Origin: Glaciecola sp. UBA1851
GTDB lineage: Bacteria > Pseudomonadota > Gammaproteobacteria > Enterobacterales > Alteromonadaceae
Direction of reading: 5' to 3'
DNA length: 32,000 nucleotides
NCBI GenBank assembly: GCA_002338515.1
Contig: DDIL01000005.1
Coordinates: forward strand, 1-32,000
The translations under genes and the position numbers were made by a program. Positions within the stretch are counted from its first letter, which is position 1. Each line of letters begins with the position of its first letter. This document shows, piece after piece, positions 4,279 through 31,961 of this stretch. Below the pieces are notes generated by a model. The model ran no database searches, had not been told where the DNA came from, and saw only the letters and a list, made by a program, of their open reading frames with translations.

Positions 4279-4295
4279 AAAATAGGAGAGAAACC

Positions 4296-4706: not shown

Positions 4707-4709
4707 ACT

Positions 4710-5129: not shown

Positions 5130-5131
5130 TA

Positions 5132-5434: not shown

Positions 5435-5535
5435 ACTGCACTTGGCCTTCTAATAAATGCAAGGAATAATGGCGTATGGTGTAGTTGGTTCATATTTTGC
5501 TAATGGTTGTATATCTAAACAACTTACTGAAAAAT

Positions 5536-14240: not shown

Positions 14241-17200
14241 TAGCATTTTTTGCCAAACACCCCACTGCCGCAAACTTATTGATGGCAATTATTATTATTT
14301 TAGGCCTAACCGCATTACCTGATATCAAGCGTGAAACTTTCCCTGACTTTCAAGCGAAAACTGTGCAAATTACTATTGTGTATCCAGGAGCGACACCTGC
14401 CGAAGCATCAAGCGCGCTTTGTTTGCCTATTGAAGATGCAATTGATGGCCTTGACCAACTAGACGAGCTTACGTGCGAAGCAAGAGAAAACATCGCCATT
14501 GCCACGGTTGATATGCAAGAAGGTGGGAATATAGATAAATTAGTGGCAGAAGTAAAAAATGAAATAGATGCTATTGATAGTTTCCCTGATGGCATTGAAC
14601 TACCTATTGTAGAAGAGAAGGGCAGAACAGATGAAGTGATTCATCTAGCTATTCAGTCAGATATAAATGAAGTTGAATTAAAAGAATATGCCGAAACAAT
14701 TAAAGACAAATTAAAAAGGATAGATGGCGTAGCAAATATAGAAGTTGGCGGTTTTTCAGATCATCAACTGCGAGTTAACTTATCGCTATCAAAGCTTAGA
14801 GAATATGGTTTAACTACACAAGATGTAGCTGAGTCACTGGCCAATCAAAATTTAAAAATGCCAGGAGGGAATTTAGAAGGTAATGATAAAACTGTGCTGT
14901 TACGTTTTGATCAACAGCGAGTCACTGCTAACTTGTTAGAAGAGTTAGTTATATTTGGCGGTGCGGATGGCGGGCAAATTAAACTGAAAGAATTAGGTTT
15001 TGTTGAAGATAGGTTTGAAGATGAAGAGGTGCACATACGTTTTAACGGTAAACGTGCGGCTTTATTGAAAATTAGTAAAAGCAAAGCTGAAGATGCCATT
15101 GATATTGCCACCGAAGTCATGCAATTTGTTGATAAAGAAAAAGCCATGTTACCCTCTGGCATAAGCATGACTTTAACAAATAACACCTCCACCATTATTC
15201 AAGATAGATTAAGCATGTTGTTAACTAATGGTGCGCAAGGAATATTGTTGGTATTTGCGGTAATGTGGCTATTCTTTTCATATCGTTATGCCTTTTGGGT
15301 ATCAATGGGATTACCGGTTTCGTTTTTAGGAACACTATTTTTAATCTCGATTTTGGGCATTAGCATTAACATGATTTCGATGGTGGCGATGTTAATGGCA
15401 ATTGGCATTTTAATGGACGACGCCATTGTGATTGCTGAAAGTATCGCTACCCAAGTCGCTAAAAATGGCGATGTAGATAAGGGTGCTATAGATGGCGTAA
15501 AGTTGGTGCTTCCCGGTGTTGTATCATCATTCCTAACAACTTGCGCTATTTTTGGTGGAATGGCTTTTATATCAGGTGATATCGGGCAAGTGTTAAAAGT
15601 TATTCCTATGGTATTGCTGCTTACATTAAGTGTGTCTTTAATTGAAGCTTTTCTGATTTTACCTAATCATTTAGTGCATTCATTACACAAACATAAAGAA
15701 ACTAATGAAACGGGGTTTAAGCTCAAGTTTACGCAAAAATTTGAAACATTCAGAGATGTATATTTGGTGAATGTCGTAGAAAAAGTAGTAACATATCGTT
15801 ACGCGTTTTTAGGAGGTTTATTTGTCGCATTTTTATTAAGCTTATCGCTATTTGTTGGTGGCTTATTGAAGTTTAAAGCCTTCCCCAATACAGAAGGTGA
15901 CATACTCGAAGCACGCTTAATACTTGCGTCGGGTACACCATTTGATAAAACGCAAATTGTAGTGAAACAAATTACTGAGGCAGCCAATACACTTAATCGT
16001 GAATTCTCCAAGCAAGAGCCTGATAACCAAAGTTTAATAAAAAATATAACGGTTGAATATAATCAAAATAGGGATGCATTCTCGCAAGGCGCTCATTTAG
16101 CGACGGTAAGAATGGAACTTCAAACCGTTGAAGACCGCATAACTAGTATTTATGACGTGCACAAACGCTGGCAAGAATTAGTCGGATCTATGCCTTCTAT
16201 CGTGTCTTTATCTATAACAGAGCCGAGTATTGGACCAGCAGGTAGGGCAATTGAAATTCGTTTAAGTGGCGTTAATGTAGACCAACTGATGCAGCATGCA
16301 TTAGCGATTAAAAGCGAGCTAAATCAATATCAAGGTGTAAATAATCTATTGCTTGATACGCGCGAGGGCAAAGAAGAGCTAATCATATCAATGAAACCCG
16401 GCGCACTTTCATTTCAAGTGAATGGTAGCATCATTGCTAATCAATTGCGCGGCGCATATAACGGTATAAAAGTAGATGATATACAAAGAGGGAGTGAGCA
16501 AATTGAATTAGATGTGCGACTTCAAGATGCCGATAAACTCAATATCAATCAGTTAAATAATTTTCCTATTATTTTACCCGATGGTACCGAGATACCCCTG
16601 TCGGCTGTCGCTAAAATTCAACAAGAGCGCGGAGTATCGAGAATTAATAGAATAGAAGGGCAGCCAACCGTTACTATTATTGGCGATGTTGACCCATTGC
16701 TAGCAAATACTGCTGAAGTGCTTGCAGATATAGACCAAAATTTTATTCAACCCTTGCTACAACAGCAACCTAATTTACAGGTTAAGTTTGAAGGTGAAGC
16801 CGAAGAAGGGAACAAAACATCCGCATCAATAGGGCAGAAGTTTCTGTTAGGTTTAGTCGGTATTTTTATTATTCTAAGCTATCAGTTTAAAAGCTACTTT
16901 GAGCCTGTCATGGTAATGACCGCCATACCACTTGCACTTATAGGCGTATTGTGGGGCCATTTTCTTTTAGGTTTTGACATGACTATGCCAAGCATTGTGG
17001 GCTTTATATCGTTAGCTGGGATAGTGGTAAATGATTCTATTTTATTGGTGGTATTTATTAAGCAACACATGCAAGAAGGAATGGATGCCCATAAAGCAGC
17101 TGTTATGGCAGCAAAAGAACGCTTTAGAGCTGTATTTATTACAAGCGCTACAACCATAGCTGGCACTTTTCCACTGCTACTAGAAACAAGCACTCAAGCA

Positions 17201-17353
17201 CAAGTATTGCAGCCTTTAGTGGTCAGTTTAATATTTGGGATTATTGCATCCACATGCTTAATACTATTTCTACTCCCCGCGCTTTATGTGATTTTACAAG
17301 ACTTTGGATTAGCGAGTAATGCGCATATGCAGGAACCTGACACTTTTGATTAA
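14237..17353 (+). CDS. RND efflux permease (AcrB/AcrD/AcrF family)
   Basis: 1038 aa with a duplicated architecture of two large periplasmic loops and twelve hydrophobic segments. The start (FFAKHPTAANLLM) and the SMGLPVSF...MIAMLMAIGILMDDAIV region are typical of the family. Confidence 0.9.
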   Translation: MIAFFAKHPTAANLLMAIIIILGLTALPDIKRETFPDFQAKTVQITIVYPGATPAEASSALCLPIEDAIDGLDQLDELTCEARENIAIATVDMQEGGNIDKLVAEVKNEIDAIDSFPDGIELPIVEEKGRTDEVIHLAIQSDINEVELKEYAETIKDKLKRIDGVANIEVGGFSDHQLRVNLSLSKLREYGLTTQDVAESLANQNLKMPGGNLEGNDKTVLLRFDQQRVTANLLEELVIFGGADGGQIKLKELGFVEDRFEDEEVHIRFNGKRAALLKISKSKAEDAIDIATEVMQFVDKEKAMLPSGISMTLTNNTSTIIQDRLSMLLTNGAQGILLVFAVMWLFFSYRYAFWVSMGLPVSFLGTLFLISILGISINMISMVAMLMAIGILMDDAIVIAESIATQVAKNGDVDKGAIDGVKLVLPGVVSSFLTTCAIFGGMAFISGDIGQVLKVIPMVLLLTLSVSLIEAFLILPNHLVHSLHKHKETNETGFKLKFTQKFETFRDVYLVNVVEKVVTYRYAFLGGLFVAFLLSLSLFVGGLLKFKAFPNTEGDILEARLILASGTPFDKTQIVVKQITEAANTLNREFSKQEPDNQSLIKNITVEYNQNRDAFSQGAHLATVRMELQTVEDRITSIYDVHKRWQELVGSMPSIVSLSITEPSIGPAGRAIEIRLSGVNVDQLMQHALAIKSELNQYQGVNNLLLDTREGKEELIISMKPGALSFQVNGSIIANQLRGAYNGIKVDDIQRGSEQIELDVRLQDADKLNINQLNNFPIILPDGTEIPLSAVAKIQQERGVSRINRIEGQPTVTIIGDVDPLLANTAEVLADIDQNFIQPLLQQQPNLQVKFEGEAEEGNKTSASIGQKFLLGLVGIFIILSYQFKSYFEPVMVMTAIPLALIGVLWGHFLLGFDMTMPSIVGFISLAGIVVNDSILLVVFIKQHMQEGMDAHKAAVMAAKERFRAVFITSATTIAGTFPLLLETSTQAQVLQPLVVSLIFGIIASTCLILFLLPALYVILQDFGLASNAHMQEPDTFD

Positions 17354-17630
17354 TTTTTAACTGTACGAAAATTACATAACCACTATTTGAAACTGCCATC
17401 AAACACTATTTATGTGTTTATTTTCATGCACAATAGTTTGTTAAATAATTGTTTTTTTGATTGTTAAAAATACATATATATTTAATAAAATTCTAATCAT
17501 ATGTTTTTATTGATTTTTTTAATTTAAAACAAAATTTAGTAGATTTAAAACTTAAAAAAAATATAAATTTATGGGGTTATTTCCTTCATTTAGCTTGTAA
17601 AGGACCATAACAAATGTTAATAATATGTAA

Positions 17631-17644
17631 TGTAAGCGCTACCA
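17631..17644. promoter_or_regulatory. LacI-family (XylR-like) operator, copy 1 upstream of the TonB-dependent receptor
   Basis: TGTAAGCGCTACCA, a 14-bp near-palindrome with a CGCT/AGCG core. It is part of a 19-bp unit (aatgtaagcgctaccattt) that repeats 21 bp downstream. Confidence 0.55.
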
Positions 17645-17651
17645 TTTTAAA

Positions 17652-17665
17652 TGTAAGCGCTACCA
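17652..17665. promoter_or_regulatory. LacI-family (XylR-like) operator, copy 2 upstream of the TonB-dependent receptor
   Basis: Identical TGTAAGCGCTACCA, offset by exactly 21 bp (two helical turns) from copy 1. Confidence 0.55.
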
Positions 17666-17924: not shown

Positions 17925-20906
17925 ATGAAAAACAGCAAAAATAATATAACCTTCGAGAATCAGCGCCCTCATTGGATGCGATTCAAAAAAACTATGGTAG
18001 CTGTGGGTATTAGTGCAGCCGTTGCACATACCCCTCTTTATGTGCATGCTCAAGAAACCTCAGAACAAGCGACTGAAGAAGAGTCTGCAGAGGTTATTAA
18101 TGTTAGAGGGCAACGACAAAGTTTGACTGCTGCCCAAGAACTTAAACGAAATGCTGATACCTTCCTTGACGCAATTTCAGCATCAGATTTAGGCGCTCTT
18201 CCTGATGCTAGTGTTGTTGAAGCATTACAACGTGTTCCAGGTATTACAATAGAGCGGTTTGCTGCACCTGATGACCCAGACCATTTCTCAACGGAGGGCA
18301 GTGATGCAACACTTCGTGGCCTTCCTCAAACTCGTACCGGAATTAACGGGCGCGATAGCGTTGCCGCAGATTCATCAAATGGTTTAGGTTTCGATGACAT
18401 TTCACCTCAATTGCTTGGAAGTGTTGAAATTTATAAAAACCAAACTGCTGATATGATTGAAGGGGGTATTGCAGGTACTATTAACTTGAATACCCGCAAA
18501 CCTTTTGATTCTTCATCTCGAATTCTTAATTTTGAGTTGCAAGGCAGTGAAGGTAACTTATCAAAAGAACCCACATACGGGTTTTCTGGTTTATATTCTG
18601 ATGTATTTGACGTTTCAAGTGGTGAGGTAGGTGTATTGGTGAGCTATAGCTCGGTAGACCTAACGTTTAGAGCCGATGGGGCGGAGCTAGGCCAGCATAA
18701 TTTAGTGGCTGATGCTGCGGGTGCCGGGCAAGACAGATGGACACCTATCAATGCAGGCGTTCGCTCAACTACTACTGATCGTGAACGTGAAGCTGCCTCC
18801 TTTACTTTGCAGTATCAAAATTCTGACGAAACCTTTTTATCTACGTTTGAATATATTCTATCAGACTCAGCAACAAATTGGTCAGAGCATGCATTCTTTT
18901 CAGATGATCAAGCTTATACAAGCTTAGGTGATGATGTTACGTTTGGTAACGAATCATTTACTGGCGGTACACTACAAGGTATTCAAGATGGCTTAGGCCC
19001 GCAAACACGCAAAAGTTCAAGCGAAGAAAAGCTAGAAGAATTTACTTTTAACGTTGCATATAAGCCAACTGATCGTTTAACACTTGAGTTTGATGTGCAA
19101 TATGTTGATGCTACTACCGACGTAGTAGATTTATCAGTATTTGGCGGCATTATTCCTAGGCTTGGCGGTATCGATATTGAAGTAGACGCAATGGGCGATA
19201 CTCCAGTTGTTGGCTTTAGGGCACCCTCTGGTTCTGGCCTAAGCGATGCTGAATTTTTCAGCGACCCTAAGAACTATTTCTATCGTGCAGCCATGGACCA
19301 CGTTGAAGAATCTGAAGGCGATCAAAGTGCATTTCAGTTTGATGTAGACTATGAACTAGAGCATGACATGCTAGATTCAGTTGAAGTAGGCGCGCGTTAT
19401 GCTGAGCGTGATCAAACAACACGTTGGTCAACCTATAATTGGCAAAACTTATCTGCCGAATGGGCCGGTGGTTGGGTTGATTTTAATGGTGACAGAATAC
19501 AACCATCTTGGAATGGCGATACAGCATTTCAGCCAACGGGTGAAACCTTGGATACCCCCGGATTTGAGTCATTTGCCTATCCGGGCTTTCACAATGGTAA
19601 TGCTGGAAGTCCTATAAACAGCCTGTTTGCGTCGTTTAATAGTGTACAAAGCTATGATACATTTTTACAAAGCTATTCTGCCTTTAACTTTCCAAGTTTG
19701 GGTACAAGGGGGGATGTGGTAGATGGCAGTATTTATCGCCCTGCTGAGCTTAACCGTGTGGTAGAGGAAAACACGGCGTTTTACGCTAAGTTAAATTTTG
19801 GTGGTGATTCTCGTGTCTCGGGCAACGTAGGATTAAGGTACGTCAACGTAGATACGTCGGTAGATGGTGGCGAAACTTTCCCTGTTCAGCTATCTGACAA
19901 TCTTGTATTAACTGCGGATGAAATGGCGTTTTTCAATGATGCGAGTATTGTTAGGTCAACCAGCAACAGTTACAGCGCTGTATTGCCTAGTTTGAACGTA
20001 AAATACCTTCTTGGCGATGATTTACTTCTTCGTTTTGCTGCATCAAAATCTGTGGCGTTTGCTGACACGGGTAACTTACGGTACAACTATAACTACACAA
20101 CAGATACAATTGAAATTGACCCAGATGTTGATATGTCACCTGTACGCATTGATCAAATAGAAAGGCGAAGTGGCAATCCATTCTTAGCTCCCATGGAGTC
20201 AATTGACTTAGACTTGTCAGTAGAGTGGTACTTTGATGAGGGTGATTCACTTACAGTGGGTGTTTTCCATAAAGATATTGAAGGTTTTTTCTCAAACGAT
20301 ACTTTCAGTCAGCAGGTAACCAACAATGGAGTAACTTTACCTGTACAGGTAAGTACCACAATTAATGTAGGCAGTGGCACTTTAAAAGGTCTAGAAATAG
20401 GCTATCAGCAGTTCTTTGACGAGTTGCCGGGTTTATTTAGTAATTTAGGCTTACAATTCAACGCAACATTCTTAAGGGAAAGTGGTACACCTAATCAAAA
20501 TACCCGTCCTGTCCAATCAGGTGGGGAAGACGATGTGGCCAGAGCCGAATTGCCGTTTGAAGGTTTGCCTCTGCAAGGTTTGTCTGAAACAACATACAAT
20601 ATTGTGGGTTTGTATGAAGATGATGTTATTTCTGCTCGTTTAGCTTATAACTATCGCTCAGATTATTTATTGACTGTTCGTCAAACTAACCTCGGTATAC
20701 CTATTTTTAACCAGGCTCGAGGTCAACTCGATGGGTCTGCTTTTTATAGTATTACAGATAATATTGAAGTGGGTATTCAGGGGCAAAACTTAACCAAGTC
20801 TGAGTCAAATACGCGTATGCAAGTGGACCAGGAAGGGACAACGGTGGTCAGATCGTCATTTACGAATGACCGAAGATTATCGTTAATTGTAAGAGGTCGA
20901 TTCTAA
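17925..20906 (+). CDS. TonB-dependent outer-membrane receptor (carbohydrate/oligosaccharide type)
   Basis: Signal peptide ending VHAQE. Acidic linker and TonB-box-like EVINVRGQRQS. Plug motifs (DAISASDLGALPDASVVEALQRVPGITIER, GSVEIYKNQTADMIEGGIAGTINLNTRKPF). Long beta-barrel ending in ...LIVRGRF with a terminal Phe. Shine-Dalgarno aggaag. Confidence 0.9.
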   Translation: MKNSKNNITFENQRPHWMRFKKTMVAVGISAAVAHTPLYVHAQETSEQATEEESAEVINVRGQRQSLTAAQELKRNADTFLDAISASDLGALPDASVVEALQRVPGITIERFAAPDDPDHFSTEGSDATLRGLPQTRTGINGRDSVAADSSNGLGFDDISPQLLGSVEIYKNQTADMIEGGIAGTINLNTRKPFDSSSRILNFELQGSEGNLSKEPTYGFSGLYSDVFDVSSGEVGVLVSYSSVDLTFRADGAELGQHNLVADAAGAGQDRWTPINAGVRSTTTDREREAASFTLQYQNSDETFLSTFEYILSDSATNWSEHAFFSDDQAYTSLGDDVTFGNESFTGGTLQGIQDGLGPQTRKSSSEEKLEEFTFNVAYKPTDRLTLEFDVQYVDATTDVVDLSVFGGIIPRLGGIDIEVDAMGDTPVVGFRAPSGSGLSDAEFFSDPKNYFYRAAMDHVEESEGDQSAFQFDVDYELEHDMLDSVEVGARYAERDQTTRWSTYNWQNLSAEWAGGWVDFNGDRIQPSWNGDTAFQPTGETLDTPGFESFAYPGFHNGNAGSPINSLFASFNSVQSYDTFLQSYSAFNFPSLGTRGDVVDGSIYRPAELNRVVEENTAFYAKLNFGGDSRVSGNVGLRYVNVDTSVDGGETFPVQLSDNLVLTADEMAFFNDASIVRSTSNSYSAVLPSLNVKYLLGDDLLLRFAASKSVAFADTGNLRYNYNYTTDTIEIDPDVDMSPVRIDQIERRSGNPFLAPMESIDLDLSVEWYFDEGDSLTVGVFHKDIEGFFSNDTFSQQVTNNGVTLPVQVSTTINVGSGTLKGLEIGYQQFFDELPGLFSNLGLQFNATFLRESGTPNQNTRPVQSGGEDDVARAELPFEGLPLQGLSETTYNIVGLYEDDVISARLAYNYRSDYLLTVRQTNLGIPIFNQARGQLDGSAFYSITDNIEVGIQGQNLTKSESNTRMQVDQEGTTVVRSSFTNDRRLSLIVRGRF

Positions 20907-20925
20907 ACATCCCCTTCTCAAATTT

Positions 20926-20970
20926 AGCTGTAGGTGCTATGTTTATGGTATCTACAGCTTGTTTGTTTTT
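20926..20970 (+). terminator. possible leaky intrinsic terminator/attenuator between the receptor and the halogenase-fold genes
   Basis: An 8-bp stem, agctgtag (20926-20933) pairing with ctacagct (20952-20959), followed by tgtttgttttt. The 18-nt loop is long, so the structure is weak. Confidence 0.3.
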
Positions 20971-21008
20971 GGCGGCGTAATTACCTAAGAGTCTATTTTA
21001 AAGAGTGT

Positions 21009-22565
21009 ATGCAAAGTAATTCCATCAAAAAAATAGTGATTGTTGGTGGCGGGACAGCCGGTTGGATGACCGCCGCTGCATTGTCATCGTTACTAGATAA
21101 GACACAGGTTTCCATATCCCTAATTGAATCCGAGCAAATTGGTACAGTGGGGGTTGGCGAAGCGACCCTTCCTCATCTACGGTTTTTTATCAAGCGCCTT
21201 GGTATTGATGAACAAGAGTTTATGCGCCGCACTAATGCAACGTATAAAACGGGCATTGAGTTTATTAATTGGGGGCAAGTAGGTGAAAGTTACTTGCATC
21301 CATTTGGTGATTTCGGTCAAAGCATCAATAGCGTTGATTTTCATCATTACTGGGTAAAACAGCGACAAACAGGAGACAAAACCGATATTGGCGATTATTC
21401 CCTGCCAGTTGTAGCATCAAAAATGGGTAAGTTTGATTACCCTAGTTCTGACGAGCAATCTATTTTATCTACGTTTTCTTACGCTTTTCATTTAGATGCA
21501 GGGCTGTTCGCCAAGTTTCTACGAGAATACTCTGAAGAAAAAGGTGTAGTGCGTACTGAAGGATTGATCAAACACGTCAAACAAGACGACAAAACAGCTT
21601 TCATATCATCAGTGACCTTAGACAGTGGCCAGTCAATTGAAGGTGACCTATTCATTGATTGCTCAGGCTTTAGAGGGTTGTTAATCGAACAAACACTTAA
21701 AACGGGTTACGATGATTGGCGACATTGGTTGCCATGCGACCGAGCAATTGCCATTCCTTGCGAAACCATGAGTGCGCCTTTACCCTATACTAAAGCAACC
21801 GCACGTGATGCTGGATGGCAGTGGCGTATACCGCTGCAAAATAGAGTAGGAAATGGTCATATTTATTCTAGTTCATATATGGACGATACGACGGCATTAG
21901 ATGTTTTATTACAAGGCTTGGATGCTAAACCTACAGGTGATCCAAATTTCCTACGTTTTACCACAGGAAGGCGTAAAAAAGCATGGAATAAAAACTGTGT
22001 GGCAATTGGTCTGTCAGGTGGGTTTTTAGAACCTCTTGAAAGTACCAGTATTCATCTTATTCAACTGGGTATCATGAAATTGTTAGAATTTTTCCCAGAC
22101 AAGCATTGCGATGAAATAAAAAGCGCAGAATACAATCGCATGATGAGTTTAGAATTTGAACGCTTACGTGATTTTTTAGTGCTGCATTATCATGCAACAA
22201 GACGAAATGACACAGATTTTTGGAACTATGTGCGTACTATGAGCTTACCAGATGGACTCGAACATAAAATGGAATTGTTTAAAGAACGTGGGCATGTTGT
22301 GCAATATACTGAAGGCTTATTTTTAAAAGCAAGTTGGCTTGCTGTCTATTTGGGGCAGGGGGTCATACCTACCCATTATGATTACAATGTGGATGCTCAA
22401 CCTCAAGCAAAAGTTGAAAACTTCTTAAAACAGCTTAAAGGTAATATTTCTGATGCAGCCGCGGGTATGAATGACCACGCTATAAGTTTAGCAAATCATT
22501 GCGATATAAACGTTAATCAAACTCCACCTCCAGCTAGTATGAGTTTATATGGAAGAGACGCTTAA
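21009..22565 (+). CDS. flavin-dependent tryptophan-halogenase-fold protein, paralogue 1 (motifs intact)
   Basis: IVIVGGGTAGWM (GxGxxG, 21045-21062), GVGEATLP, TYKTGIEF, FIDCSGFRGLLIE, GWQWRIPL (WxWxIP), GGFLEPLESTSIHL. The ATG at 21009 (MQSNSIKK...) is preferred over the track's 20934 start. Confidence 0.85.
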   Translation: MQSNSIKKIVIVGGGTAGWMTAAALSSLLDKTQVSISLIESEQIGTVGVGEATLPHLRFFIKRLGIDEQEFMRRTNATYKTGIEFINWGQVGESYLHPFGDFGQSINSVDFHHYWVKQRQTGDKTDIGDYSLPVVASKMGKFDYPSSDEQSILSTFSYAFHLDAGLFAKFLREYSEEKGVVRTEGLIKHVKQDDKTAFISSVTLDSGQSIEGDLFIDCSGFRGLLIEQTLKTGYDDWRHWLPCDRAIAIPCETMSAPLPYTKATARDAGWQWRIPLQNRVGNGHIYSSSYMDDTTALDVLLQGLDAKPTGDPNFLRFTTGRRKKAWNKNCVAIGLSGGFLEPLESTSIHLIQLGIMKLLEFFPDKHCDEIKSAEYNRMMSLEFERLRDFLVLHYHATRRNDTDFWNYVRTMSLPDGLEHKMELFKERGHVVQYTEGLFLKASWLAVYLGQGVIPTHYDYNVDAQPQAKVENFLKQLKGNISDAAAGMNDHAISLANHCDINVNQTPPPASMSLYGRDA

Positions 22566-24167
22566 GTGAGTGAGCATGACCGAGGGCCTATTCAAAATAT
22601 TTGCATTTTGGGTAAACATTTACATGTCGCTTCAGTCGCCGCCGCGCTCAGCCGTAAATTTATGCAGCAAAATATTAATATTATAGCGGTTAACACTGAG
22701 GGTAACGATAAATCAGTTTATGGTGAAGCTTCACTTAGTGCACTTCATTATTTTCATCGCTTTTTGGGGCTAAAAGAGCATCAAATGATGGCGGTAACCA
22801 GCGCAACTTACAAACTTGCATCGCAATATAAAAGGTGGTCATGCAGTGAGGCTAATGACACTAGCGAAAAAAACAAGCATTCCTCTTTCTATCATTCGTT
22901 AAGTAGTTACGGAAGTATGATTGATTCAATTGCTTTTGTTCATCATTTGACCAAACTTCGCCAAAACAATAAAAACTATGACTTTACCTGCTTCTCATTG
23001 CCTGCAGTCATGGCGCGAAACGGTAAGTTTGCTAAACCTGAATCGGCACAGTCAGCATTACCCTATAGCTATGCAATGCACATTGATGCAACCTCCTATG
23101 CTAAGGGTATGCAGGATTACGCAACTAAGCTAGGCGTTAAGTTTATATCTAGTAATATAGATAACGTACAGCTCAAATATATTGAAAATAATCTCGGTCA
23201 ACCTTCCGCGCACGTAAAACAAGTAACCTTGAGCGATGGCAGGCAAATAAAATCTGAATTATTTATCGATTGTACTAGCGATGGTGAGTTAATTGACAAG
23301 GCATTAAACGTTGGTTTTGAAGATTGGAGTGAGTATTTACCTTGTGATCGTTTTTTGACATGCAAAACAGAGTTAGATTTACAATTACAGCCTTCTACAA
23401 ATATGAATTTGCACAAAAATGGATGGGAACGCAGTTTTCCTCTGCAAAATGGAACCGTAAAAGAATTCTTTTACTCAAGCAAATACTTAAGCGATGATGA
23501 AGCGGTAAAAGAATTTGAAGTTAATCATTTAAAAGATACTAAAATCCTAAGTGAATGCCGTATAGAAAAACAAAGGACAGGTCGTCGAAAACAATTTTTT
23601 AGTGGTAATTGCGTGTCTATGGGAGGAGCAGCAGGCAGTTTAGATAGACTGGCCGTTAGTGATTTTCATTTAGTGCAATCAGCTGTATTGCGCTTAATTG
23701 ACTTATTTCCTGATACCTCGTTAGGTCAGTTTGCAGATAATTTTAGCCGCAATGAATATAATCATTTATGTACCGAAGAATATGCACGTATTTTAGATTA
23801 TCACGGCGCACATTTTGCTATCCCAGCAAAAGAAGCTGATGAATCCTGTAGCCAATTTTGGCAAGCGCAAAAAACAGCAATATTACCCGACTCACTTGTA
23901 AAAAAATTTAATTTATTTGAGGCCTGTGGGCGTATACCTTTTTATGAAAGGGAAACGTTTTCTAGTTCAACTTGGGTGTCATTATTATTGGGTTTAGGCA
24001 TGCATCCAAAAAGTTATGATGTGTTATTAGATATGCCTCCAGCTAGCAATGAACGAAGCATAAAAGCAATAAACAACATTATGAATACAATCAAGGATAT
24101 AAGTGATCGCGCCCCCTCTCATGCCCAATACTTGCGCCAGTATTGTGTACGACGAAACAATAGGTAG
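22566..24167 (+). CDS. tryptophan-halogenase-fold paralogue 2, with degenerate FAD-binding and catalytic motifs (probable pseudo-enzyme)
   Basis: Collinear with its neighbours (FIDC, TGRRK, YLPCDR and LFPD retained). However, GxGxxG reads ILGKHLHV, GVGEAT reads VYGEAS, WxWxIP reads GWERSFPL, and EPLEST reads SLDRLAVSD. The GTG start directly abuts the paralogue 1 stop. Confidence 0.75.
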   Translation: MSEHDRGPIQNICILGKHLHVASVAAALSRKFMQQNINIIAVNTEGNDKSVYGEASLSALHYFHRFLGLKEHQMMAVTSATYKLASQYKRWSCSEANDTSEKNKHSSFYHSLSSYGSMIDSIAFVHHLTKLRQNNKNYDFTCFSLPAVMARNGKFAKPESAQSALPYSYAMHIDATSYAKGMQDYATKLGVKFISSNIDNVQLKYIENNLGQPSAHVKQVTLSDGRQIKSELFIDCTSDGELIDKALNVGFEDWSEYLPCDRFLTCKTELDLQLQPSTNMNLHKNGWERSFPLQNGTVKEFFYSSKYLSDDEAVKEFEVNHLKDTKILSECRIEKQRTGRRKQFFSGNCVSMGGAAGSLDRLAVSDFHLVQSAVLRLIDLFPDTSLGQFADNFSRNEYNHLCTEEYARILDYHGAHFAIPAKEADESCSQFWQAQKTAILPDSLVKKFNLFEACGRIPFYERETFSSSTWVSLLLGLGMHPKSYDVLLDMPPASNERSIKAINNIMNTIKDISDRAPSHAQYLRQYCVRRNNR

Positions 24168-24175
24168 TTATATTT

Positions 24176-25738
24176 ATGAATACACCACAAAATGCAGTCA
24201 ACCAAGCAAAAAATGATAATCAAGTTCGTGATATTTTAATAGTCGGTGGTGGTACCGCTGGGTGGATGGTTGCTGCGGCTTTAGCAAAGAATTTTGGTAA
24301 TAAGGGCCGAAAAATAAGACTCATTGAGTCAGAAGAGATTGGTACAGTGGGAGTGGGTGAAGCAACCATTCCTTTTATTCGTACCTTTAATCAATTGCTA
24401 GGTATTGATGAAAACGAGTTTGTAAGGGAAACAAAAGGTACGTTTAAGCTAGGAATTGAATTCAATGACTGGGGCAAATTGGGTGACAGCTATATTCATC
24501 CATTTGGTGTATATGGTTCACCCATGGCCGACAATATACCCTTTCATCACTATTGGCTAAAACTCAGAAATGAAGGCATTGAAACTAATCTTTCAGATTA
24601 TTCATTAGCTATAATAGCCGCGAAAAAGGAGCGGTTTAGCCGTCCTGTCAATATTCAAAACTCACCTATGGCGTCGCTTAATTATGCTTTTCAATTTGAT
24701 TCTGGTTTATATGCTAAATTTTTACGCAAGTTTGCAGAAAGTCGAGGTGTAGAAAGGGTCGAAGGTAAAGTTAGTTCTGTTCAGGTAAATCAAGATACCG
24801 GTTATATTGATTCAGTGACGATGCAGAATACGTCAAGTGATATAGCAGGCTCGGTTAAATATCACGCTGATTTCTATATTGATTGCTCAGGATTTAGAGG
24901 CTTGTTAATAGAAGGAGCTTTGCATACTGGTTATGAAGACTGGACGCATTGGCTTCCTTGTGACCGCGCTGTTGCAGCACCTTGCGCTGCAAATGGAGAA
25001 CCCTTACCCTATACACGCTCAACCGCTAGAAAAGCAGGATGGCAATGGCGTATACCGCTACAACATAGAACCGGAAATGGGCATGTATTCAGTAGTCAGT
25101 ATATGAGTGTTGATGAAGCAACATCTATTTTACTTAATAGTCTTGATGGAGAATTACTTGCCGAGCCCAAAGTGTTAACATTCCAAACGGGACGGCGCAA
25201 AAAAACGTGGAACAAAAACTGTCTTGCTATTGGTTTGTCAGGTGGCTTTATGGAGCCTCTGGAAAGTACTAGTATTCATTTAATTCAATCAGCCATCGCT
25301 AGACTAATAAGCCTATTTCCAGATAAAGATTTCAATGACGCTATTGTTAACCGGTTTAACGATGAGTCTAAATGGGAATATGAACGCATTCGTGACTTTT
25401 TAATACTACACTATAAGCTTAATCAACGTACCGATTCAGAGTTTTGGATGTACTGTCAAAATATGGCGATTCCCGATTTTCTGCAGAGCAAACTCGACCT
25501 ATATCGTAGCAGCGGGCATATTTTTAGAGATAATGAAGAGTTATTTGGCATTCCGAGCTGGTTAGCTGTAATGGAGGGGCAAAACTTTCATGCAGATGGT
25601 TGCCATCCTTTACCTGACGCAAGGGAATCGAGTCGATTGCATGAGCATTTATTAAAAATAGGTTCCGTAATCGACAGGTGCGCAGATAGTATGCCTACTC
25701 ATGCTGAGTTTATTAATAAACATTGTAAAGCTAGTTAA
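24176..25738 (+). CDS. flavin-dependent tryptophan-halogenase-fold protein, paralogue 3 (motifs intact)
   Basis: ILIVGGGTAGWM, GVGEATIP, TFKLGIEF, YIDCSGFRGLLIE, GWQWRIPL, GGFMEPLESTSIHL. Starts 8 nt after the paralogue 2 stop. Confidence 0.85.
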   Translation: MNTPQNAVNQAKNDNQVRDILIVGGGTAGWMVAAALAKNFGNKGRKIRLIESEEIGTVGVGEATIPFIRTFNQLLGIDENEFVRETKGTFKLGIEFNDWGKLGDSYIHPFGVYGSPMADNIPFHHYWLKLRNEGIETNLSDYSLAIIAAKKERFSRPVNIQNSPMASLNYAFQFDSGLYAKFLRKFAESRGVERVEGKVSSVQVNQDTGYIDSVTMQNTSSDIAGSVKYHADFYIDCSGFRGLLIEGALHTGYEDWTHWLPCDRAVAAPCAANGEPLPYTRSTARKAGWQWRIPLQHRTGNGHVFSSQYMSVDEATSILLNSLDGELLAEPKVLTFQTGRRKKTWNKNCLAIGLSGGFMEPLESTSIHLIQSAIARLISLFPDKDFNDAIVNRFNDESKWEYERIRDFLILHYKLNQRTDSEFWMYCQNMAIPDFLQSKLDLYRSSGHIFRDNEELFGIPSWLAVMEGQNFHADGCHPLPDARESSRLHEHLLKIGSVIDRCADSMPTHAEFINKHCKAS

Positions 25739-25953: not shown

Positions 25954-27039
25954 TTAAAAAATTAAACTAGATAAAGCGTTTGAAAATGTATTGCTACTTC
26001 TATCATAAATTTGAAAAGAGCCACCGTCGCACCAAACAGTGCCGGGTATGCCAAATTCTTTCTGCAATGCCACATGTGCTTTTAAATATTCAAGACGATC
26101 GTTTTCATTACAGATATTTTGAGGTTGCGTGAAATCATACATAGCCGCGCCAAATTCATTTACAATCACGGGAATACCAAAATTTTCAGACCAATTAGAT
26201 ACATCTTGATAAATCTCTCTCAACGCCAATCTATCTGCTTCACTGCCCCATGATCTAGTGCATTGGCCTGCAAATGGCCAAGGGTCATAAGAATGGAAAT
26301 TTGCAATGATATTTGGGTCATTTGGTATATCGGCTTGTTTCATCGCTTCAGCTGGGGTGTACCCATTGCCAGAGTATATGACTGAACGTGTGGGGTTTGA
26401 TTGTCTGATCACTGCTAGTACTTCAAGGTTTAGTGAGTCTACTTGTTCTAATGTCATGCCATTAGGTTCGTTTAAAATTTCAAATAGCAATTTGGATGAT
26501 TTGTTTTTAAATCTGTCAGCAACTTGAGTCCAAATGGCTACGAAACGTGCGCGTTTTTCTGCGTTGATATCATTTTTTAACCATGATTCATGATGCGCAT
26601 TGATCATAACGTAAAAATCTCTTTCTATCGCCCAATCAACAATTTCTTCTACTCGATTAAAAAAGTCATCATTCACTTCATATGGTGATTGATTAGCAAC
26701 TCGCTTATCCCAAGTAATAGGGATTCTGACATGTCCGAAACCTGCTGTTTTATATGCATCATAATAATACTCTTGGGCTGCTAATGCCCATTCACCCTCA
26801 CTAGGAGCGTCAAGTGTATTTCCCATATTTATACCCGTTCCCAATGCTGCAACAATTTCTGTTGGAGTCTGATAATTAGCATCTGGGGTAGGCGTATTAG
26901 TAGTCGGTGGTGGCAAGTTTGGTGGAGTAATTTGATTGTCAGGCGTAGCTACTTCCATGGTTGAATTACTTGACCCGCATCCAAACATAAGCAAAACATA
27001 TAATATTATAAATGTTAACTTTGAAGTTTTAGTAAACAT
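25954..27039 (-). CDS. GH5 glycoside hydrolase (endo-beta-glycanase), probable lipoprotein
   Basis: Signal sequence plus Cys (LLMFGC). Pro/Thr linker (PPNLPPPTTNTPTPD). GINMGNTLDA. Acid/base motif FEILNEPNG and nucleophile motif VIVNEFGA. Confidence 0.8.
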   Translation of the reverse strand: MFTKTSKLTFIILYVLLMFGCGSSNSTMEVATPDNQITPPNLPPPTTNTPTPDANYQTPTEIVAALGTGINMGNTLDAPSEGEWALAAQEYYYDAYKTAGFGHVRIPITWDKRVANQSPYEVNDDFFNRVEEIVDWAIERDFYVMINAHHESWLKNDINAEKRARFVAIWTQVADRFKNKSSKLLFEILNEPNGMTLEQVDSLNLEVLAVIRQSNPTRSVIYSGNGYTPAEAMKQADIPNDPNIIANFHSYDPWPFAGQCTRSWGSEADRLALREIYQDVSNWSENFGIPVIVNEFGAAMYDFTQPQNICNENDRLEYLKAHVALQKEFGIPGTVWCDGGSFQIYDRSSNTFSNALSSLIF

Positions 27040-27127: not shown

Positions 27128-27141
27128 TGTAAACGCTTACA
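27128..27141. promoter_or_regulatory. LacI-family (XylR-like) operator in the divergent GH5/GH10 intergenic region
   Basis: TGTAAACGCTTACA, 87 bp upstream of the GH5 start codon and 372 bp upstream of the GH10 start codon. Confidence 0.5.
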
Positions 27142-27512: not shown

Positions 27513-28652
27513 ATGAAAAATATTAAACTAAGTGTGATTATGTTTGGGTGCATGTTTATCCTTTCTTGCTCAATCAAAAGCGGAAAGATTAATGATATTT
27601 CCAATAGTAGTTTAGCAGATGTTTTTAGTGAAGGATTTGATTTAGGTGTAGCCGTTAACCGCAATCAAATGTTGGGAATTGAAAAACCACAACAGCAAAT
27701 TGTGAGTCAGCACTTTAATGCACTCACACCCGAAAATGATATGAAGTGGAGCACGCTGCAACCTTCTGAAGGTAGTTTTGATTTTACAGGTGCAGATGCC
27801 CTAATAAATTATGCAGCAGAAAATAATAAGAAAATTATTGGCCACGTATTAGTTTGGCATCAGCAAGTACCGGAATGGCTATTTGTTGATGAGCAAGGCA
27901 AACAAGTTACAAGAGAAGTGCTTCTATCTAGAATGAAATCACATATTTTTGAAGTGGCAGGTAGGTATAAAAACCAAATTTATGGTTGGGATGTCGTCAA
28001 TGAAGCATTAAATGATGATGGTAGTCTACGAGAGTCTAAATGGCTTGAAATTATTGGTGAAGACTTTATTGATTATGCATTTTTATATGCTTCCCAAGCA
28101 GCGCCAAACGCTAAACTGTATTACAACGATTACAATCTGTTTAAACAAGAAAAAATTACGGGTGCACTGACAATTGCCGAACGACTAAAACGCAAGGGAA
28201 TTCGAATTGATGGGATTGGTGCACAAGCGCATTATGGGCTAAACCCACCTGTTGCAGAATTAGAAAAAACTATTCAGCGAGTTATTTCTCAGCAATTAGA
28301 TTTTATGATAACGGAACTGGATATTACCGTCTTAAAATTTCCCGAGCCTGAAAAAATGGGGGCAGATGTGAGTCTAAATGTTGAATATGCAGAAGAATAC
28401 AATCCTTATGCTGAAAGTATGTCAAACGAAGCCTTGCAAGCATTGGCACAAAGTTATATCGATTTATTTGAGCTTTTTTGGAAGTACCGCGACCACATCA
28501 GTAGAGTCACTCTTTGGGGAGTAAGTGATGGTGATTCATGGAGAAACTATTGGCCCATGCAAGGAAGAGTTGACTACCCTTTATTATTTGACCGAGCTTA
28601 CCAAGCAAAACCTTTTGTACAAGATTTAATAAACATACCTCAAAGTCAATAA
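27513..28652 (+). CDS. GH10 endo-1,4-beta-xylanase, probable lipoprotein
   Basis: Lipobox-like FILSC. GH10 acid/base motif GWDVVNEAL and nucleophile motif MITELDITV. NDYN and WHQQVPEW are also present. Confidence 0.9.
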   Translation: MKNIKLSVIMFGCMFILSCSIKSGKINDISNSSLADVFSEGFDLGVAVNRNQMLGIEKPQQQIVSQHFNALTPENDMKWSTLQPSEGSFDFTGADALINYAAENNKKIIGHVLVWHQQVPEWLFVDEQGKQVTREVLLSRMKSHIFEVAGRYKNQIYGWDVVNEALNDDGSLRESKWLEIIGEDFIDYAFLYASQAAPNAKLYYNDYNLFKQEKITGALTIAERLKRKGIRIDGIGAQAHYGLNPPVAELEKTIQRVISQQLDFMITELDITVLKFPEPEKMGADVSLNVEYAEEYNPYAESMSNEALQALAQSYIDLFELFWKYRDHISRVTLWGVSDGDSWRNYWPMQGRVDYPLLFDRAYQAKPFVQDLINIPQSQ

Positions 28653-28688
28653 CAGCATTCTTTATTCTTATTTTTGGATTATATACTA

Positions 28689-30323
28689 ATGACACAATCA
28701 ATGATTGAAAACCCAATTTTACCAGGTTTTAACCCTGACCCAAGTATTGTTGCGGTTGGCGACGACTACTATATTGCTACTTCTACGTTTGAATGGTATC
28801 CAGGCGTGCAAATACACCACTCTAAAGATTTGAAAAATTGGCGTCTCGTTAAACGACCGCTTGATAGAGAATCTTTGCTCGACATGCGTGGCGCGCCAGA
28901 TTCATGTGGAATATGGGCGCCTTGTTTAAGTTATAGCAATGGCAAGTTTCATCTGATTTTTACTGATGTGAAGCGGTTTCAAGGTAACTTTAAAGATGCC
29001 CATAATTATTATACGAGTTGTGAAACCATAAATGGAACCTGGTCTGACCCTATTTATATGAATTCCAGTGGTTTTGACCCATCTTTGTTTCATGATGATG
29101 ATGGGAAGATGTGGTTTGTTAATATGGTATGGGATCATCGCCATAAACATAATCAATTTGGTGGTATTTTATTGCAAGAATATTGTCCGAAGCAGCAAAA
29201 GCTTGTTGGAGAAGTTAAAAACATATTTAAAGGAACAAGTTTAGGTCTCACAGAAGCACCACACTTATTTAAAAGAAACGGTTATTATTATTTGTTAACT
29301 GCAGAAGGTGGGACGTTTTATACACATGCAATGACAATGGCACGTTCAAAGAATATTGATGGCCCATATGAAAACGATCCATATGGGTATTTGTTAACAG
29401 CAAAAGACAACCAGCATTTACGATTACAGCGTTCAGGCCATGGAGATCTGGTTGAAACCAGTGACGGGCAAACTTACTTAGTGCATTTATGTGGCAGACC
29501 ATTGGCCGGCGAGAGAAGATGTCCATTAGGTAGGGAAACTGGCATACAAAAAACCTATTGGACAGAAGATGATTGGCTACGTGTTGAAGGAGCCATTACT
29601 GACGGTTTACCTTCTTATGAAGTTCCTGCTCCTGCATTGAATGAGTATCCATGGCCAAAAGACCCTATTCGCTATGATTTTAACGATAATGCTTTGCCTA
29701 TAGCCTTTCAATGGTTGCGTACTCCGTTTCCCGAAAGGCTTATGAATTTAAATGCTAGACCAGGCTTTTTGAGATTAATTGGTAGAGAGTCGATAGGCAG
29801 CCTTTATGAACATGCATTGGTTGCGCGTAGACAACAAGCATTTAAATATCGCTCACAAATTTCAATGGAATTCCAACCTACTAGTTTTCAGCAAATGGCT
29901 GGGCTAGTTGTCTATTACAACTGTCATAAATTTCATTATTGTTATGTTTCAATTGATGATGATGGAAATCGTTTTATCGATATTATGAGTTGCCTTGGTG
30001 ACACATCTCAAGAGTTAACCTACCCGCTTCGAGAAGGTGAATTGGAGATTGGAAGAACTGATTCTAGGTTTATTTTACCCAATACAAGTACTTTGTTTAT
30101 TCGCGCATTAGTTGATCATCACATTCTACATTTTGAGTTTTCTTTAGATGAAAAAAATTGGACGCGTTTACCTGTTAATCTTGACCAAAGTATTGTTTCT
30201 GATGAAGCTGGTGGGGGCGACGGTGCGAATTTTACAGGGGCATTTATCGGCATGGCGTGTCAAGATTTGACCGGTCAAGCTTTAGTGGCTGACTTTGATT
30301 ATTTTGAGTACGAAGAGCTATAA
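28689..30323 (+). CDS. GH43 beta-xylosidase/alpha-L-arabinofuranosidase (XynB-like) with a C-terminal beta-sandwich domain
   Basis: NPILPGFNPDPS (catalytic Asp), YYIATSTFEW, CGIWAPCL, TEAPHLFKRNGYYYLLTAEGG, and a ~200-aa C-terminal domain ending in DFDYFEY. The ATG at 28689 is preferred over the TTG at 28674. Confidence 0.9.
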   Translation: MTQSMIENPILPGFNPDPSIVAVGDDYYIATSTFEWYPGVQIHHSKDLKNWRLVKRPLDRESLLDMRGAPDSCGIWAPCLSYSNGKFHLIFTDVKRFQGNFKDAHNYYTSCETINGTWSDPIYMNSSGFDPSLFHDDDGKMWFVNMVWDHRHKHNQFGGILLQEYCPKQQKLVGEVKNIFKGTSLGLTEAPHLFKRNGYYYLLTAEGGTFYTHAMTMARSKNIDGPYENDPYGYLLTAKDNQHLRLQRSGHGDLVETSDGQTYLVHLCGRPLAGERRCPLGRETGIQKTYWTEDDWLRVEGAITDGLPSYEVPAPALNEYPWPKDPIRYDFNDNALPIAFQWLRTPFPERLMNLNARPGFLRLIGRESIGSLYEHALVARRQQAFKYRSQISMEFQPTSFQQMAGLVVYYNCHKFHYCYVSIDDDGNRFIDIMSCLGDTSQELTYPLREGELEIGRTDSRFILPNTSTLFIRALVDHHILHFEFSLDEKNWTRLPVNLDQSIVSDEAGGGDGANFTGAFIGMACQDLTGQALVADFDYFEYEEL

Positions 30324-30554: not shown

Positions 30555-30568
30555 TGTAAGCGCTTTCA
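30555..30568. promoter_or_regulatory. LacI-family (XylR-like) operator upstream of the GPH symporter
   Basis: TGTAAGCGCTTTCA, 47 bp upstream of the transporter start codon. Confidence 0.5.
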
Positions 30569-30614: not shown

Positions 30615-31961
30615 GTGGAAAAATTAAGCATTAAAGAAAAAATCGGATTTGGTCTTGGAGACGCTGCCAGCAACATTGTTTTTCAGATGGTGTTGCTTTA
30701 CATGCTCTTTTTCTATACCGACGTATTTGGTATTTCTGCAACCGCTGTCGGCACACTATTTTTAGTTGTCAGAATTTTTGATGCAATCACCGACCCCATT
30801 ATGGGAGGAATAGCAGATCGCACCAAAACTAAATATGGACGATACCGCCCATATTTATTATGGATGTGCATCCCTTATGGTATTTTTGCGGTTCTAGCCT
30901 TTTCTACCCCCGATCTATCTGATACTGGCAAACTCATATACGCGTGTATTACTTATGCGCTTTTAATGACAATGTATACTGCGATTAACATTCCATATTC
31001 CGCTTTAGGCGGGGTGATGACCACTAATAGAAATGAACGAGCGTCGTTACAATCATATCGTTTTATGTTGGCTATGGTGGGAGGTACGATAGTCGCGGCA
31101 AGTGTGTTACCTATGGTAGGCTTTTTTGGTGGTGACGACAATCCTGCATTTGGCTATCAAATGGCAATGATTGTACTTTCAATATTTGCCGTACTTTGCT
31201 TCGTATGTTGTTTCTTATTGACGAAAGAACGAGTAACTGTGGATGACGAAACACACAGAGTTGATTCTGACAAACCTTCTATTTATCAAGACGCGTTAGA
31301 TATGATAAAAAATGATCAATGGCGCATTATTGCGTTTGTGTCATTTTTATCGTTAGCAAGCGGCGCTATGAAGGGCGCCGTCACACCTTTTTATGTTCAA
31401 TATTATCTGCAACAGCCAGATATGATAAGCGTCTTTTTAACCGCAGGGACGGTAGCGTCTTTGTTTGGCGCTTTATTTGCTAATTTAATGACCGGTAAAA
31501 TTTGTAAAGTTAAATTAATGAAGCTGGCAGTAATAGGCAGCTTAATCTTACATGCTGCTATTGTGTTTATTCCATCAGATCAACTTTATCTGTCTCTCTT
31601 TGTAACTAGCGCAGCCGCTTTTGCACATATGGTATTCACGCCACTACTTTTTTCTGCCGTACCAGATACGGTTGATTATGGCATTAAAAAATATGGAAAA
31701 GGTGCAATGGGGATGGGGGTTTCTGGCCATTTATTTGCTTTAAAACTCGGCTTGGCTGTTGGCGGGGCATGTGCTGGCTGGGTGCTGGGTTATGTTGGTT
31801 ATGTGGCTAATGCAGAGCAAACTCAAGAATCATTAAATGGTATTGTATTTTTAATGGGAGCGAGCAGTGCCATTGCATGCACCTTGATACTACTTTTATT
31901 GAATCGTTACGTACTGTATAGCAAAAAAGAAGATTTAAATGTAAATACAGTGGCTAGTTAG
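30615..31961 (+). CDS. glycoside-pentoside-hexuronide (GPH):cation symporter, probable xyloside/xylo-oligosaccharide transporter
   Basis: KIGFGLGDAASNIVFQ...FYTDVFGISA..VGTLFLVVRIFDAITDPIMGGIADRTKTKYGRYRP is the MelB/YicJ/XynP family signature. About 12 hydrophobic segments. GTG start. Confidence 0.85.
   Translation: MEKLSIKEKIGFGLGDAASNIVFQMVLLYMLFFYTDVFGISATAVGTLFLVVRIFDAITDPIMGGIADRTKTKYGRYRPYLLWMCIPYGIFAVLAFSTPDLSDTGKLIYACITYALLMTMYTAINIPYSALGGVMTTNRNERASLQSYRFMLAMVGGTIVAASVLPMVGFFGGDDNPAFGYQMAMIVLSIFAVLCFVCCFLLTKERVTVDDETHRVDSDKPSIYQDALDMIKNDQWRIIAFVSFLSLASGAMKGAVTPFYVQYYLQQPDMISVFLTAGTVASLFGALFANLMTGKICKVKLMKLAVIGSLILHAAIVFIPSDQLYLSLFVTSAAAFAHMVFTPLLFSAVPDTVDYGIKKYGKGAMGMGVSGHLFALKLGLAVGGACAGWVLGYVGYVANAEQTQESLNGIVFLMGASSAIACTLILLLLNRYVLYSKKEDLNVNTVAS

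Follow-up and report, generated by a model that had tools for sequence, protein, structure and literature searches.

A glycan-type TonB-dependent receptor followed by an array of intact and degenerate halogenase paralogues in Glaciecola sp. UBA1851

Iyer et al. (2010) described genomic neighborhoods in which a receptor gene is accompanied by one to three tryptophan halogenase homologues, together with SapC and JmjC genes, and proposed that they produce a halogenated siderophore-like metabolite (PMC2938197). Among the closest enzymes studied biochemically, BrvH brominates indole, not tryptophan (PMC5945002), while Xcc4156 has an open site and brominates model substrates only; the native substrates of BrvH and three Xcc enzymes are said to "remain unknown" (PMC7336383). 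Here we describe a TonB-dependent receptor gene and the three halogenase-family genes behind it (H1, H2, and H3), which lie in a 32,000-nucleotide (nt) stretch of the Glaciecola sp. UBA1851 genome, positions 1 to 32,000 of contig DDIL01000005.1 (hereafter the window). The locus is one instance of a widespread four-gene module, in which a glycan-type receptor, a hairpin, and a closely packed array of BrvH/Xcc4156-type paralogues follow one another.

Genes of this clade are routinely labelled "tryptophan 7-halogenase," a label that misleads both the mining of genomes for natural products and attempts to estimate microbial halogen cycling. A sequence search with H3 returned at least 8,000 significant matches, and the clade is very common in receptor-rich Alpha-, Beta-, and Gammaproteobacteria; three relatives have crystal structures, none with a known substrate. 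In the full-text literature, only Iyer et al. (2010) was found to describe the neighborhood, and the literature searched yielded no functional study or phenotype. The paper of Blanvillain et al. (2007) on carbohydrate utilization loci with TonB-dependent transporters (CUT loci) mentions halogenases 0 times (PMC1790865), and the Shewanella sugar-pathway encyclopedia never mentions them. An initial reading of the window, made by a model from the sequence alone (the first-pass annotation), had supposed that the adjacency had been noticed before without being explained, and these papers agree with it (PMC2938197; PMC7336383).

Two intact halogenases and a degenerate paralogue

The window contains 24 open reading frames (ORFs) of at least 100 amino acids (aa), against which Pfam and NCBIfam profiles were scanned for all domain calls given here. 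The receptor gene (17925..20906, plus strand; 993 aa), with Pfam Plug and TonB_dep_Rec_b-barrel domains, is followed on the same strand by H1 (21009..22565; 518 aa), H2 (22566..24167; 533 aa), and H3 (24176..25738; 520 aa), which match PF04820 at 648, 300, and 625 bits, respectively. The H1/H2 junction is 0 nt, as the H1 TAA ends at 22565 and the H2 GTG starts at 22566; the H2/H3 junction is 8 nt, with the H2 TAG ending at 24167 and the H3 ATG starting at 24176. The order and both junctions are as the first-pass annotation gave them. H1 was assigned to the ATG at 21009, which has AAAGAG ahead of it and yields a protein of 518 aa, equal in length to the product of the gene called in L001, a locus 83% identical to the window; the receptor-to-H1 gap is therefore 102 nt. 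A GTG at 20934 was rejected as the start, as it falls within the hairpin described below.

Catalytic residues were assigned from an alignment of PrnA, H1, H2, H3, BrvH, and relatives of H2, using a PrnA reference sequence identical to Protein Data Bank (PDB) entry 2apg over all 538 residues. H1 and H3 carry the motifs GGGTAG, GVGEAT(L/I)P, WQWRIP, and EPLEST and retain Lys79, His101, Phe103, Pro344, and Glu346 (PrnA numbering), so that, judged from the alignment, they hold every residue needed for FADH2/O2/halide chemistry and are classed as complete flavin-dependent halogenases of the BrvH/Xcc4156 type. They are 49.5% identical to each other, 45 to 48% identical to BrvH (47.7% for H1), and about 34% identical to PrnA; from the identity to BrvH we infer a PrnA/RebH-type fold for both. 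A PDB search with H3 matched 6frl (E = 4.8e-144), then 9luq, then 6y1w (E = 2.4e-136). The fold and catalytic landmarks first read from copies 1 and 3 are thus borne out by PF04820, the PDB matches, and the PrnA alignment.

Both proteins share a 14-residue deletion within PrnA residues 435 to 455, the segment that anchors the amino-acid moiety of tryptophan. The deletion removes the region of Tyr443, Tyr444, and Glu450, and the loop residues Phe454 and Trp455 are not matched either. Two features belong to a tryptophan halogenase in the strict sense, the tryptophan-anchoring loop and a natural-product cluster with a partner reductase, and neither is present. The scanned ORFs contain no nonribosomal peptide synthetase (NRPS) or polyketide synthase, carrier-protein, tryptophan-pathway, or flavin-reductase domains, in line with the earlier view of the window as free of biosynthetic and reductase genes. 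Inspection of the halogenase N termini, which lead directly into the Rossmann beta-1 strand, likewise agrees with the earlier view that these enzymes have no signal peptides.

H2 is 29 to 31% identical to H1 or H3. Its GxGxxG position reads GKHLHV, its GVGEAT(L/I)P position VYGEASLS, and its WxWxIP position WERSFP (W274R); Pro344 is replaced by Arg and Glu346 by Ala (E346A), while Lys79 and His101 are kept. Orthologues from Alteromonas sediminis, an Aliiglaciecola metagenome-assembled genome, Agarilytica rhodophyticola, and metagenomes, ranging from 83% down to 38% identity, show the same motif losses and are conserved over the entire length; across this clade, position 346 is A, T, C, or G. 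An AlphaFold2 model of H2 (pLDDT, 86.5; pTM, 0.88) gave Foldseek matches with TM scores of 0.85 to 0.92 to BrvH (6frl), Xcc4156 (6y1w), and a Pseudoalteromonas halogenase, those to 6frl and 6y1w being 0.86 to 0.92. H2-like clusters numbered only three among 1.84 billion representatives, after which scores fall from 357 to 272 bits, the level of the general family. The ratio of nonsynonymous to synonymous substitution rates (dN/dS) against L001 is 0.13 for H2, compared with 0.048 for the receptor, 0.055 for H1, and 0.038 for H3. This value and the conserved orthologues rule out a decaying pseudogene.

We conclude that H2 is a conserved halogenase-fold pseudo-enzyme, a paralogue under selection that is predicted to be catalytically dead, and that it would most likely serve as a non-catalytic partner of H1 or H3. 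The first-pass annotation was right to treat copies 1 and 3 as intact but did not point out that copy 2 is a conserved pseudo-enzyme.

Operators, receptor, and the hairpin before H1

The only NCBIfam hit of the receptor is TIGR01782 (TonB-Xanth-Caul), at 610 bits against a cutoff of 310. None of the siderophore-receptor models in NCBIfam matched it, and a PDB sequence search at E ≤ 1e-5 returned no solved homologue. Beyond H3 lie genes for a glycoside hydrolase family 5 (GH5) endoglucanase-type enzyme, convergent with H3 (25954..27039, minus strand; Pfam Cellulase), a GH10 xylanase (27513..28652, plus strand; Pfam Glyco_hydro_10, 323 bits), a GH43 beta-xylosidase-type enzyme with a GH43_C2 domain (28674..30323, plus strand; Pfam), and a GPH-family glycoside/cation symporter (30615..31961, plus strand; Pfam MFS_2; NCBIfam TIGR00792, 384 bits). 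The closest solved structure to the GH5 protein is "Endoglucanase H" (4u3a/4u5i; E = 6.5e-73), which we take to be the bifunctional cellulase/xylanase CtCel5E. The GH10 protein aligns with only the xylanase half of a bifunctional xylanase/feruloyl-esterase NCBIfam model, and the profile scans found no feruloyl-esterase domain in the window. Nor did they find SapC, JmjC/Cupin_8, or DUF6445 genes in the ORFs scanned.

A 14-bp palindrome, TGTAAGCGCTTACA, occurs four times in the window with up to two mismatches, against 0.20 sites expected; 0 of 100 shuffles reached four. The enrichment is significant at two mismatches and not at three (13 of 100 shuffles). All four sites are intergenic. Two of them form a tandem pair of LacI-type palindromes, TGTAAGCGCTACCA (17631-17644 and 17652-17665, plus strand), about 260 nt upstream of the receptor start codon and just downstream of a sigma-70-like promoter candidate (17595..17624, plus strand; TTGTAA-18-AATAAT). 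The promoter was found by a consensus scan with 9 of 12 matches and is a weak assignment, as promoter-like sites in the region show no enrichment over shuffles. The third operator, TGTAAACGCTTACA (27128..27141, plus strand), lies in the divergent GH5/GH10 intergenic region, with an equivalent site in L001 and in L002, and the fourth, TGTAAGCGCTTTCA (30555..30568, plus strand), lies upstream of the symporter gene.

This layout is found again in related loci. L001 and L002, from uncultured relatives, have the tandem pair before the receptor and further sites before GH43 and GH9; in Alteromonas sediminis (L003), the sites precede GH9, the receptor, and GH1. A LacI-family regulator is encoded in all three loci but not in the window itself. 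The operator that had first been described as common to the receptor, glycoside hydrolase, and symporter genes is therefore upheld. No Fur box above chance was found upstream of the receptor; the best match, 12 of 19 positions, was equalled by 97% of shuffles. In having a receptor, carbohydrate-active enzymes (CAZymes), a GPH inner-membrane transporter, and a common operator, the locus shows the features of a CUT locus.

Between the receptor and H1 lies a terminator-like hairpin (20926..20972, plus strand), with a 15-bp stem and a 4-nt loop (20926-20959) followed by a T-run, TGTTTGTTTTTGG. Its predicted folding energy is -27.3 kcal/mol (z = -5.6), a stability that none of 200 shuffled sequences reached. 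A hairpin is found at the equivalent position in L001 to L004, although the sequences differ. The consensus scan and the operator search found neither a promoter-like site nor an operator in the 102-nt gap, and no convincing terminator was found 3' of H3 (z = -0.7). As the hairpin separates the receptor from H1, any cotranscription must be by read-through, and with neither a promoter-like site nor an operator in the gap, expression of H1 to H3 most likely depends on such read-through.

Relatives of the module in other genomes

The order of receptor, H1, degenerate H2, and H3 is kept in L001, L002, Alteromonas sediminis, and Agarilytica rhodophyticola. Neighbors of these orthologous modules are GH9, GH5, GH1, GH3, and GH43 genes; GH10 is not among them. 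The GH5 gene occupies the same position in L001 and L002. Where the window has its intact GH10 gene (27513-28652), L002 has a 36-aa GH10 remnant (L002:11128-11238) and L001 has none, so that the xylanase is a variable accessory to a conserved receptor/halogenase/GH5 module. Since the orthologues sit beside GH9, GH5, GH1, and GH3 genes and the GH5 protein is close to Endoglucanase H, the term beta-1,4-glycan regulon fits the locus better than one that refers to xylan only. The first-pass annotation had placed the module "inside a xylan locus"; it does lie among GH5, GH10, GH43, and GPH symporter genes, but the label is too narrow, and the module stands at the edge of the locus, beside an efflux operon of the resistance-nodulation-division (RND) type. 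In Alteromonas sediminis, a 226-aa ORF without a Pfam match (L003:13117-13797) directly follows H3 with an overlap of a few bases; it has no counterpart in the window.

We surveyed 80 loci among the matches listed, on contigs from one genome per species. Fourteen were dropped because the contig was cut; the 66 informative loci come from Alpha-, Beta-, and Gammaproteobacteria. The nearest receptor gene lies immediately upstream on the same strand in 45 of the 66, divergently upstream in 4, immediately downstream in 4, and elsewhere within 6 kb in 6; in 7, no receptor was found. A receptor is thus immediately adjacent in 53 of 66 loci (80%) and within 6 kb in 59 (89%). The receptors are of at least three subtypes: TIGR01782-like, ordinary Plug plus barrel, and CarboxypepD_reg plus OMP_b-brl_4. 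Divergent receptors were missed by a single-sequence phmmer search and by a profile built from 16 receptors; Pfam identified 9 of 10 "missing" upstream ORFs as receptors belonging to other subtypes.

The spacing between receptor and halogenase genes on the same strand has a median of about 90 nt across the three proteobacterial classes. At 82% of 45 such junctions, a stable hairpin lies within 70 nt of the receptor stop codon (median z, -3.3), whereas 6.7% of random control windows have z < -2; many of these hairpins are textbook terminators, with a GC stem and a U-tract. The first-pass description of the halogenases as "wired" to the receptor is therefore overstated, as a terminator-like hairpin intervenes in the window and similar ones intervene at most junctions.

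Of 135 halogenase-family ORFs in 84 loci, 115 have the four motifs in nearly unaltered form, and the remaining 20 are degenerate. This near-invariance argues for retained halogenase chemistry. Complete arrays with at least three genes numbered 16, and in every one the first gene is H1-type, the second degenerate, and the last H3-type; these arrays come from Alteromonadales, Cellvibrionales, Lysobacterales, Sphingomonadales, and Caulobacterales. One locus, L005, has a five-gene array in which canonical and degenerate genes alternate, the degenerate ones at positions 2 and 4 (L005:1549-2997 and L005:4530-6002), which suggests a canonical/degenerate pair as the repeating unit. On one metagenomic contig, next to a receptor gene and behind an H1-type gene, a degenerate and a canonical halogenase are fused in a single protein of 984 aa (P0242; L165:5134-8088). 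Two unrelated proteins, P0249 and P0359, are each a fusion of a canonical halogenase to DUF6445. These three fusions hint that the fused proteins work together.

A census of about 220 neighboring ORFs from 47 loci is dominated by glycan-utilization genes: alpha-amylase (17), LacI-family regulators (about 9), transporters of the major facilitator superfamily (at least 7), glucokinase (6), esterases (6), DUF6445 (6), GH1, GH3, GH5, GH31, GH32, and GH97 (2 to 3 each), and GH67 (1). Cupin_8 is present in two loci (L060 and L066). Specificity of the arrays for beta-glucan or xylan loci was considered and is ruled out, as other arrays adjoin GH67, GH28, Cupin_8, or unrelated genes. H3 is 52 to 57% identical to single halogenases from alpha-glucan loci in other classes, compared with 49.5% to its own neighbor H1. 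As H3 is nearer to the halogenases of alpha-glucan loci than to H1, the function of each halogenase subfamily appears, on sequence grounds, to be independent of the glycan imported; this argues against a xylan-specific substrate.

More distant relatives (about 30 to 35% identity; phrog_2928) were found in more than 560 stretches of phage contigs. Eighty of these viral loci (L085 to L164) contain 135 halogenase ORFs, often in tandem, and 123 of the 135 keep all four motifs. DUF6445 also has a phage family, phrog_1644; a sequence search found no PDB homologue of the domain.

Upstream of the module, the window holds other systems. Positions 12211 to 17353 encode a TetR regulator, an HlyD-type membrane fusion protein adaptor, and an AcrB-type RND pump in one efflux operon, whose end is separated from the receptor gene by 570 nt of very AT-rich sequence (about 30% GC). 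From this region, the receptor transcript is expected to have a 5' leader of about 260 nt, which has no Rfam match; a search of the whole window found no Rfam elements. Positions 208 to 9884 hold a phosphonate-type cluster with LicD (5485-6435), a fusion of a cytidylyltransferase to a phosphoenolpyruvate mutase (6419-7732), a thiamine pyrophosphate enzyme resembling phosphonopyruvate decarboxylase (7732-8802), and an iron-dependent alcohol dehydrogenase (8799-9884). Ahead of these genes are two ABC exporters, a metallo-beta-lactamase-fold protein, a BLH phosphatase, and an ArsR-type helix-turn-helix protein, and the gene content suggests that the cluster makes and exports a phosphonate-decorated molecule. 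Between this cluster and the efflux operon, on the minus strand (9947-11674), lies a 7TMR-DISM membrane sensor fused to a GGDEF diguanylate cyclase.

Candidate acceptors and comparison with known systems

Given these results, the explanation we favor is a glycan-receptor/hairpin/halogenase-array module that acts on a small aromatic acceptor, with H2 as a partner protein; we rate its chances of being right as about even. A LacI-family repressor, encoded outside the window, would be released by breakdown products of a beta-1,4-glycan (xylan or cellulose), and the receptor would then be produced in bulk. A fraction of the transcripts would pass the hairpin, giving low and roughly equal amounts of H1, H2, and H3. 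In the cytoplasm, H1 and H3 would brominate or chlorinate an electron-rich aromatic acceptor, drawing FADH2 from a housekeeping reductase, and H2 would act as a non-catalytic partner of one or the other. The acceptor would be neither free tryptophan nor specific to xylan. It should be common to all the receptor loci, because H1- and H3-type subfamilies accompany receptors for many glycans, and it is most likely a small indolic or phenolic metabolite, since the closest relatives have been shown to act on nothing else.

Several observations weigh against this explanation. A free small-molecule acceptor leaves the strict linkage to the receptor unexplained, and canonical relatives on phage contigs have no TonB receptor beside them. 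The hairpin resembles a real intrinsic terminator, so that the halogenase genes may be transcribed separately or hardly at all. The idea of H2 as a partner depends on gene order, tight junctions, and one fusion from a single metagenomic contig. Finally, indole turnover by BrvH is very slow, and those who described the enzyme question whether indole is what it acts on in nature (PMC5945002).

The linkage might instead be merely syntenic, with the halogenase genes independent or nearly silent and their role unrelated to glycan uptake, perhaps not even halogenation. The frequency of terminator-like hairpins after the receptor (82% of junctions) fits such an arrangement, as do the lack of an operator between receptor and H1 and the fact that the literature searched reports no phenotype. 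It is harder to reconcile with same-strand adjacency and a median spacing of about 90 nt kept in three proteobacterial classes, with the absence of any promoter-like site in the 102-nt gap, or with catalytic motifs whose near-invariance argues for halogenase chemistry; we consider it unlikely.

Somewhat less probable again is a protein acceptor. The targets of H1 and H3 would be Trp or Tyr residues in the nascent receptor, or in some other protein bound for export, and the modification would precede export. H2 would act as an adaptor, and DUF6445 or JmjC oxygenases of other genomes would also take part. Such a role would explain the strict linkage to three receptor subtypes whatever the glycan, and low enzyme with high receptor levels is what would be expected of an enzyme and its substrate. 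The co-occurring JmjC-type enzymes typically modify peptides, and there is no structure of this receptor family that could reveal a modification. The proposal is, however, entirely inferential: no halogenated receptor is known to have been reported, and the phage relatives occur without receptors.

The proposal of Iyer et al. (2010), a halogenated, amino-acid-derived, siderophore-like metabolite that is re-imported by the adjacent receptor, is in our judgment very unlikely here. The neighborhood of a receptor with one to three halogenases, with or without SapC, JmjC, and 2-oxoglutarate oxygenases, was defined in that paper (PMC2938197), and our survey confirmed Cupin_8 and DUF6445 neighbors and halogenase::DUF6445 fusions. 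The iron/siderophore part of the proposal is nevertheless contradicted by the receptor subfamily (TIGR01782, with no match to a siderophore-receptor model), by the absence of a Fur box, by a LacI-type operator common to the CAZyme genes in its place, and by neighbors that are overwhelmingly glycan-utilization genes; the window, moreover, has no NRPS, scaffold, SapC, or cupin genes. Least probable of all is the first-pass suggestion of cytoplasmic halogenation of ferulate or other phenolic decorations on xylo-oligosaccharides that have been taken up: the operator common to the GH10/GH43/GPH symporter locus, the lack of signal peptides, and the acceptance of electron-rich aromatics by relatives are compatible with it, but it does not generalize, since orthologous modules sit beside GH9, GH5, GH1, and GH3 without GH10, the same subfamilies occur in alpha-glucan, fructan, and pectin loci (alpha-amylase, GH97, GH31, GH32, and GH28), where such decorations are not known, and the window has no detectable feruloyl-esterase domain.

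The hypotheses are narrowed by three general features, namely a degenerate gene in second place, a hairpin after the receptor, and a lack of dependence on glycan type, which argue against both a siderophore-like metabolite and xylan phenolics. With its sugar-type operator, likely inducers (xylan or cellulose products), and compact receptor-hairpin-H1-H2-H3 module, the locus offers a tractable handle, and two intact enzymes beside one dead paralogue provide a built-in contrast. If the protein-acceptor proposal were true, it would be the first case of a protein being halogenated enzymatically in connection with nutrient uptake and would explain thousands of "tryptophan halogenase" genes beside receptor genes.

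Of the known systems, PrnA, RebH, and Thal share with H1 and H3 the fold, GxGxxG, WxWxIP, Lys79, and Glu346; they differ in sequence (about 34% identity), in the 14-residue loop deletion of H1 and H3, and in genetic context, as the window has neither a biosynthetic cluster nor a reductase. The best match among solved structures is BrvH (6FRL), which comes from a Brevundimonas-like contig of a marine metagenome. It has the same motifs, including EPLESTS, shares the deletion in the Trp-binding loop, and also has a tandem halogenase neighbor, but it was characterized as an isolated enzyme, and its paper mentions neither a TonB receptor nor a pseudo-enzyme partner; in a Brevundimonas locus of our survey (L081), a divergent receptor adjoins the halogenase. 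Xcc4156 (6Y1W) and the other brominases of Xanthomonas campestris B100 have an open site without the loops of tryptophan halogenases, like H1 and H3. The Xcc enzymes exclusively brominate in vitro, whereas the halide preference of H1 and H3 cannot be read from sequence; genomic context is not discussed in the Xcc paper.

The CUT loci of Xanthomonas and Caulobacter likewise combine a receptor, glycoside hydrolases, an inner-membrane sugar transporter, and a repressor-controlled regulon; here, halogenases are present and the regulator gene lies outside the window. The neighborhoods of Iyer et al. (2010) are similar in placing a TonB-type receptor beside one to three halogenase homologues in Alpha- and Gammaproteobacteria. 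They differ in that the window lacks SapC, JmjC/Cupin_8, and DUF6445, its receptor is of the glycan type, and its operator is of a sugar type, not an iron type; their general statement on the Rossmann motif does not hold for H2, in which that motif is not intact. The pairing of receptor and halogenase has thus been known since 2010, and the rules of a degenerate second member, a hairpin after the receptor, and independence from the glycan are useful refinements of it.

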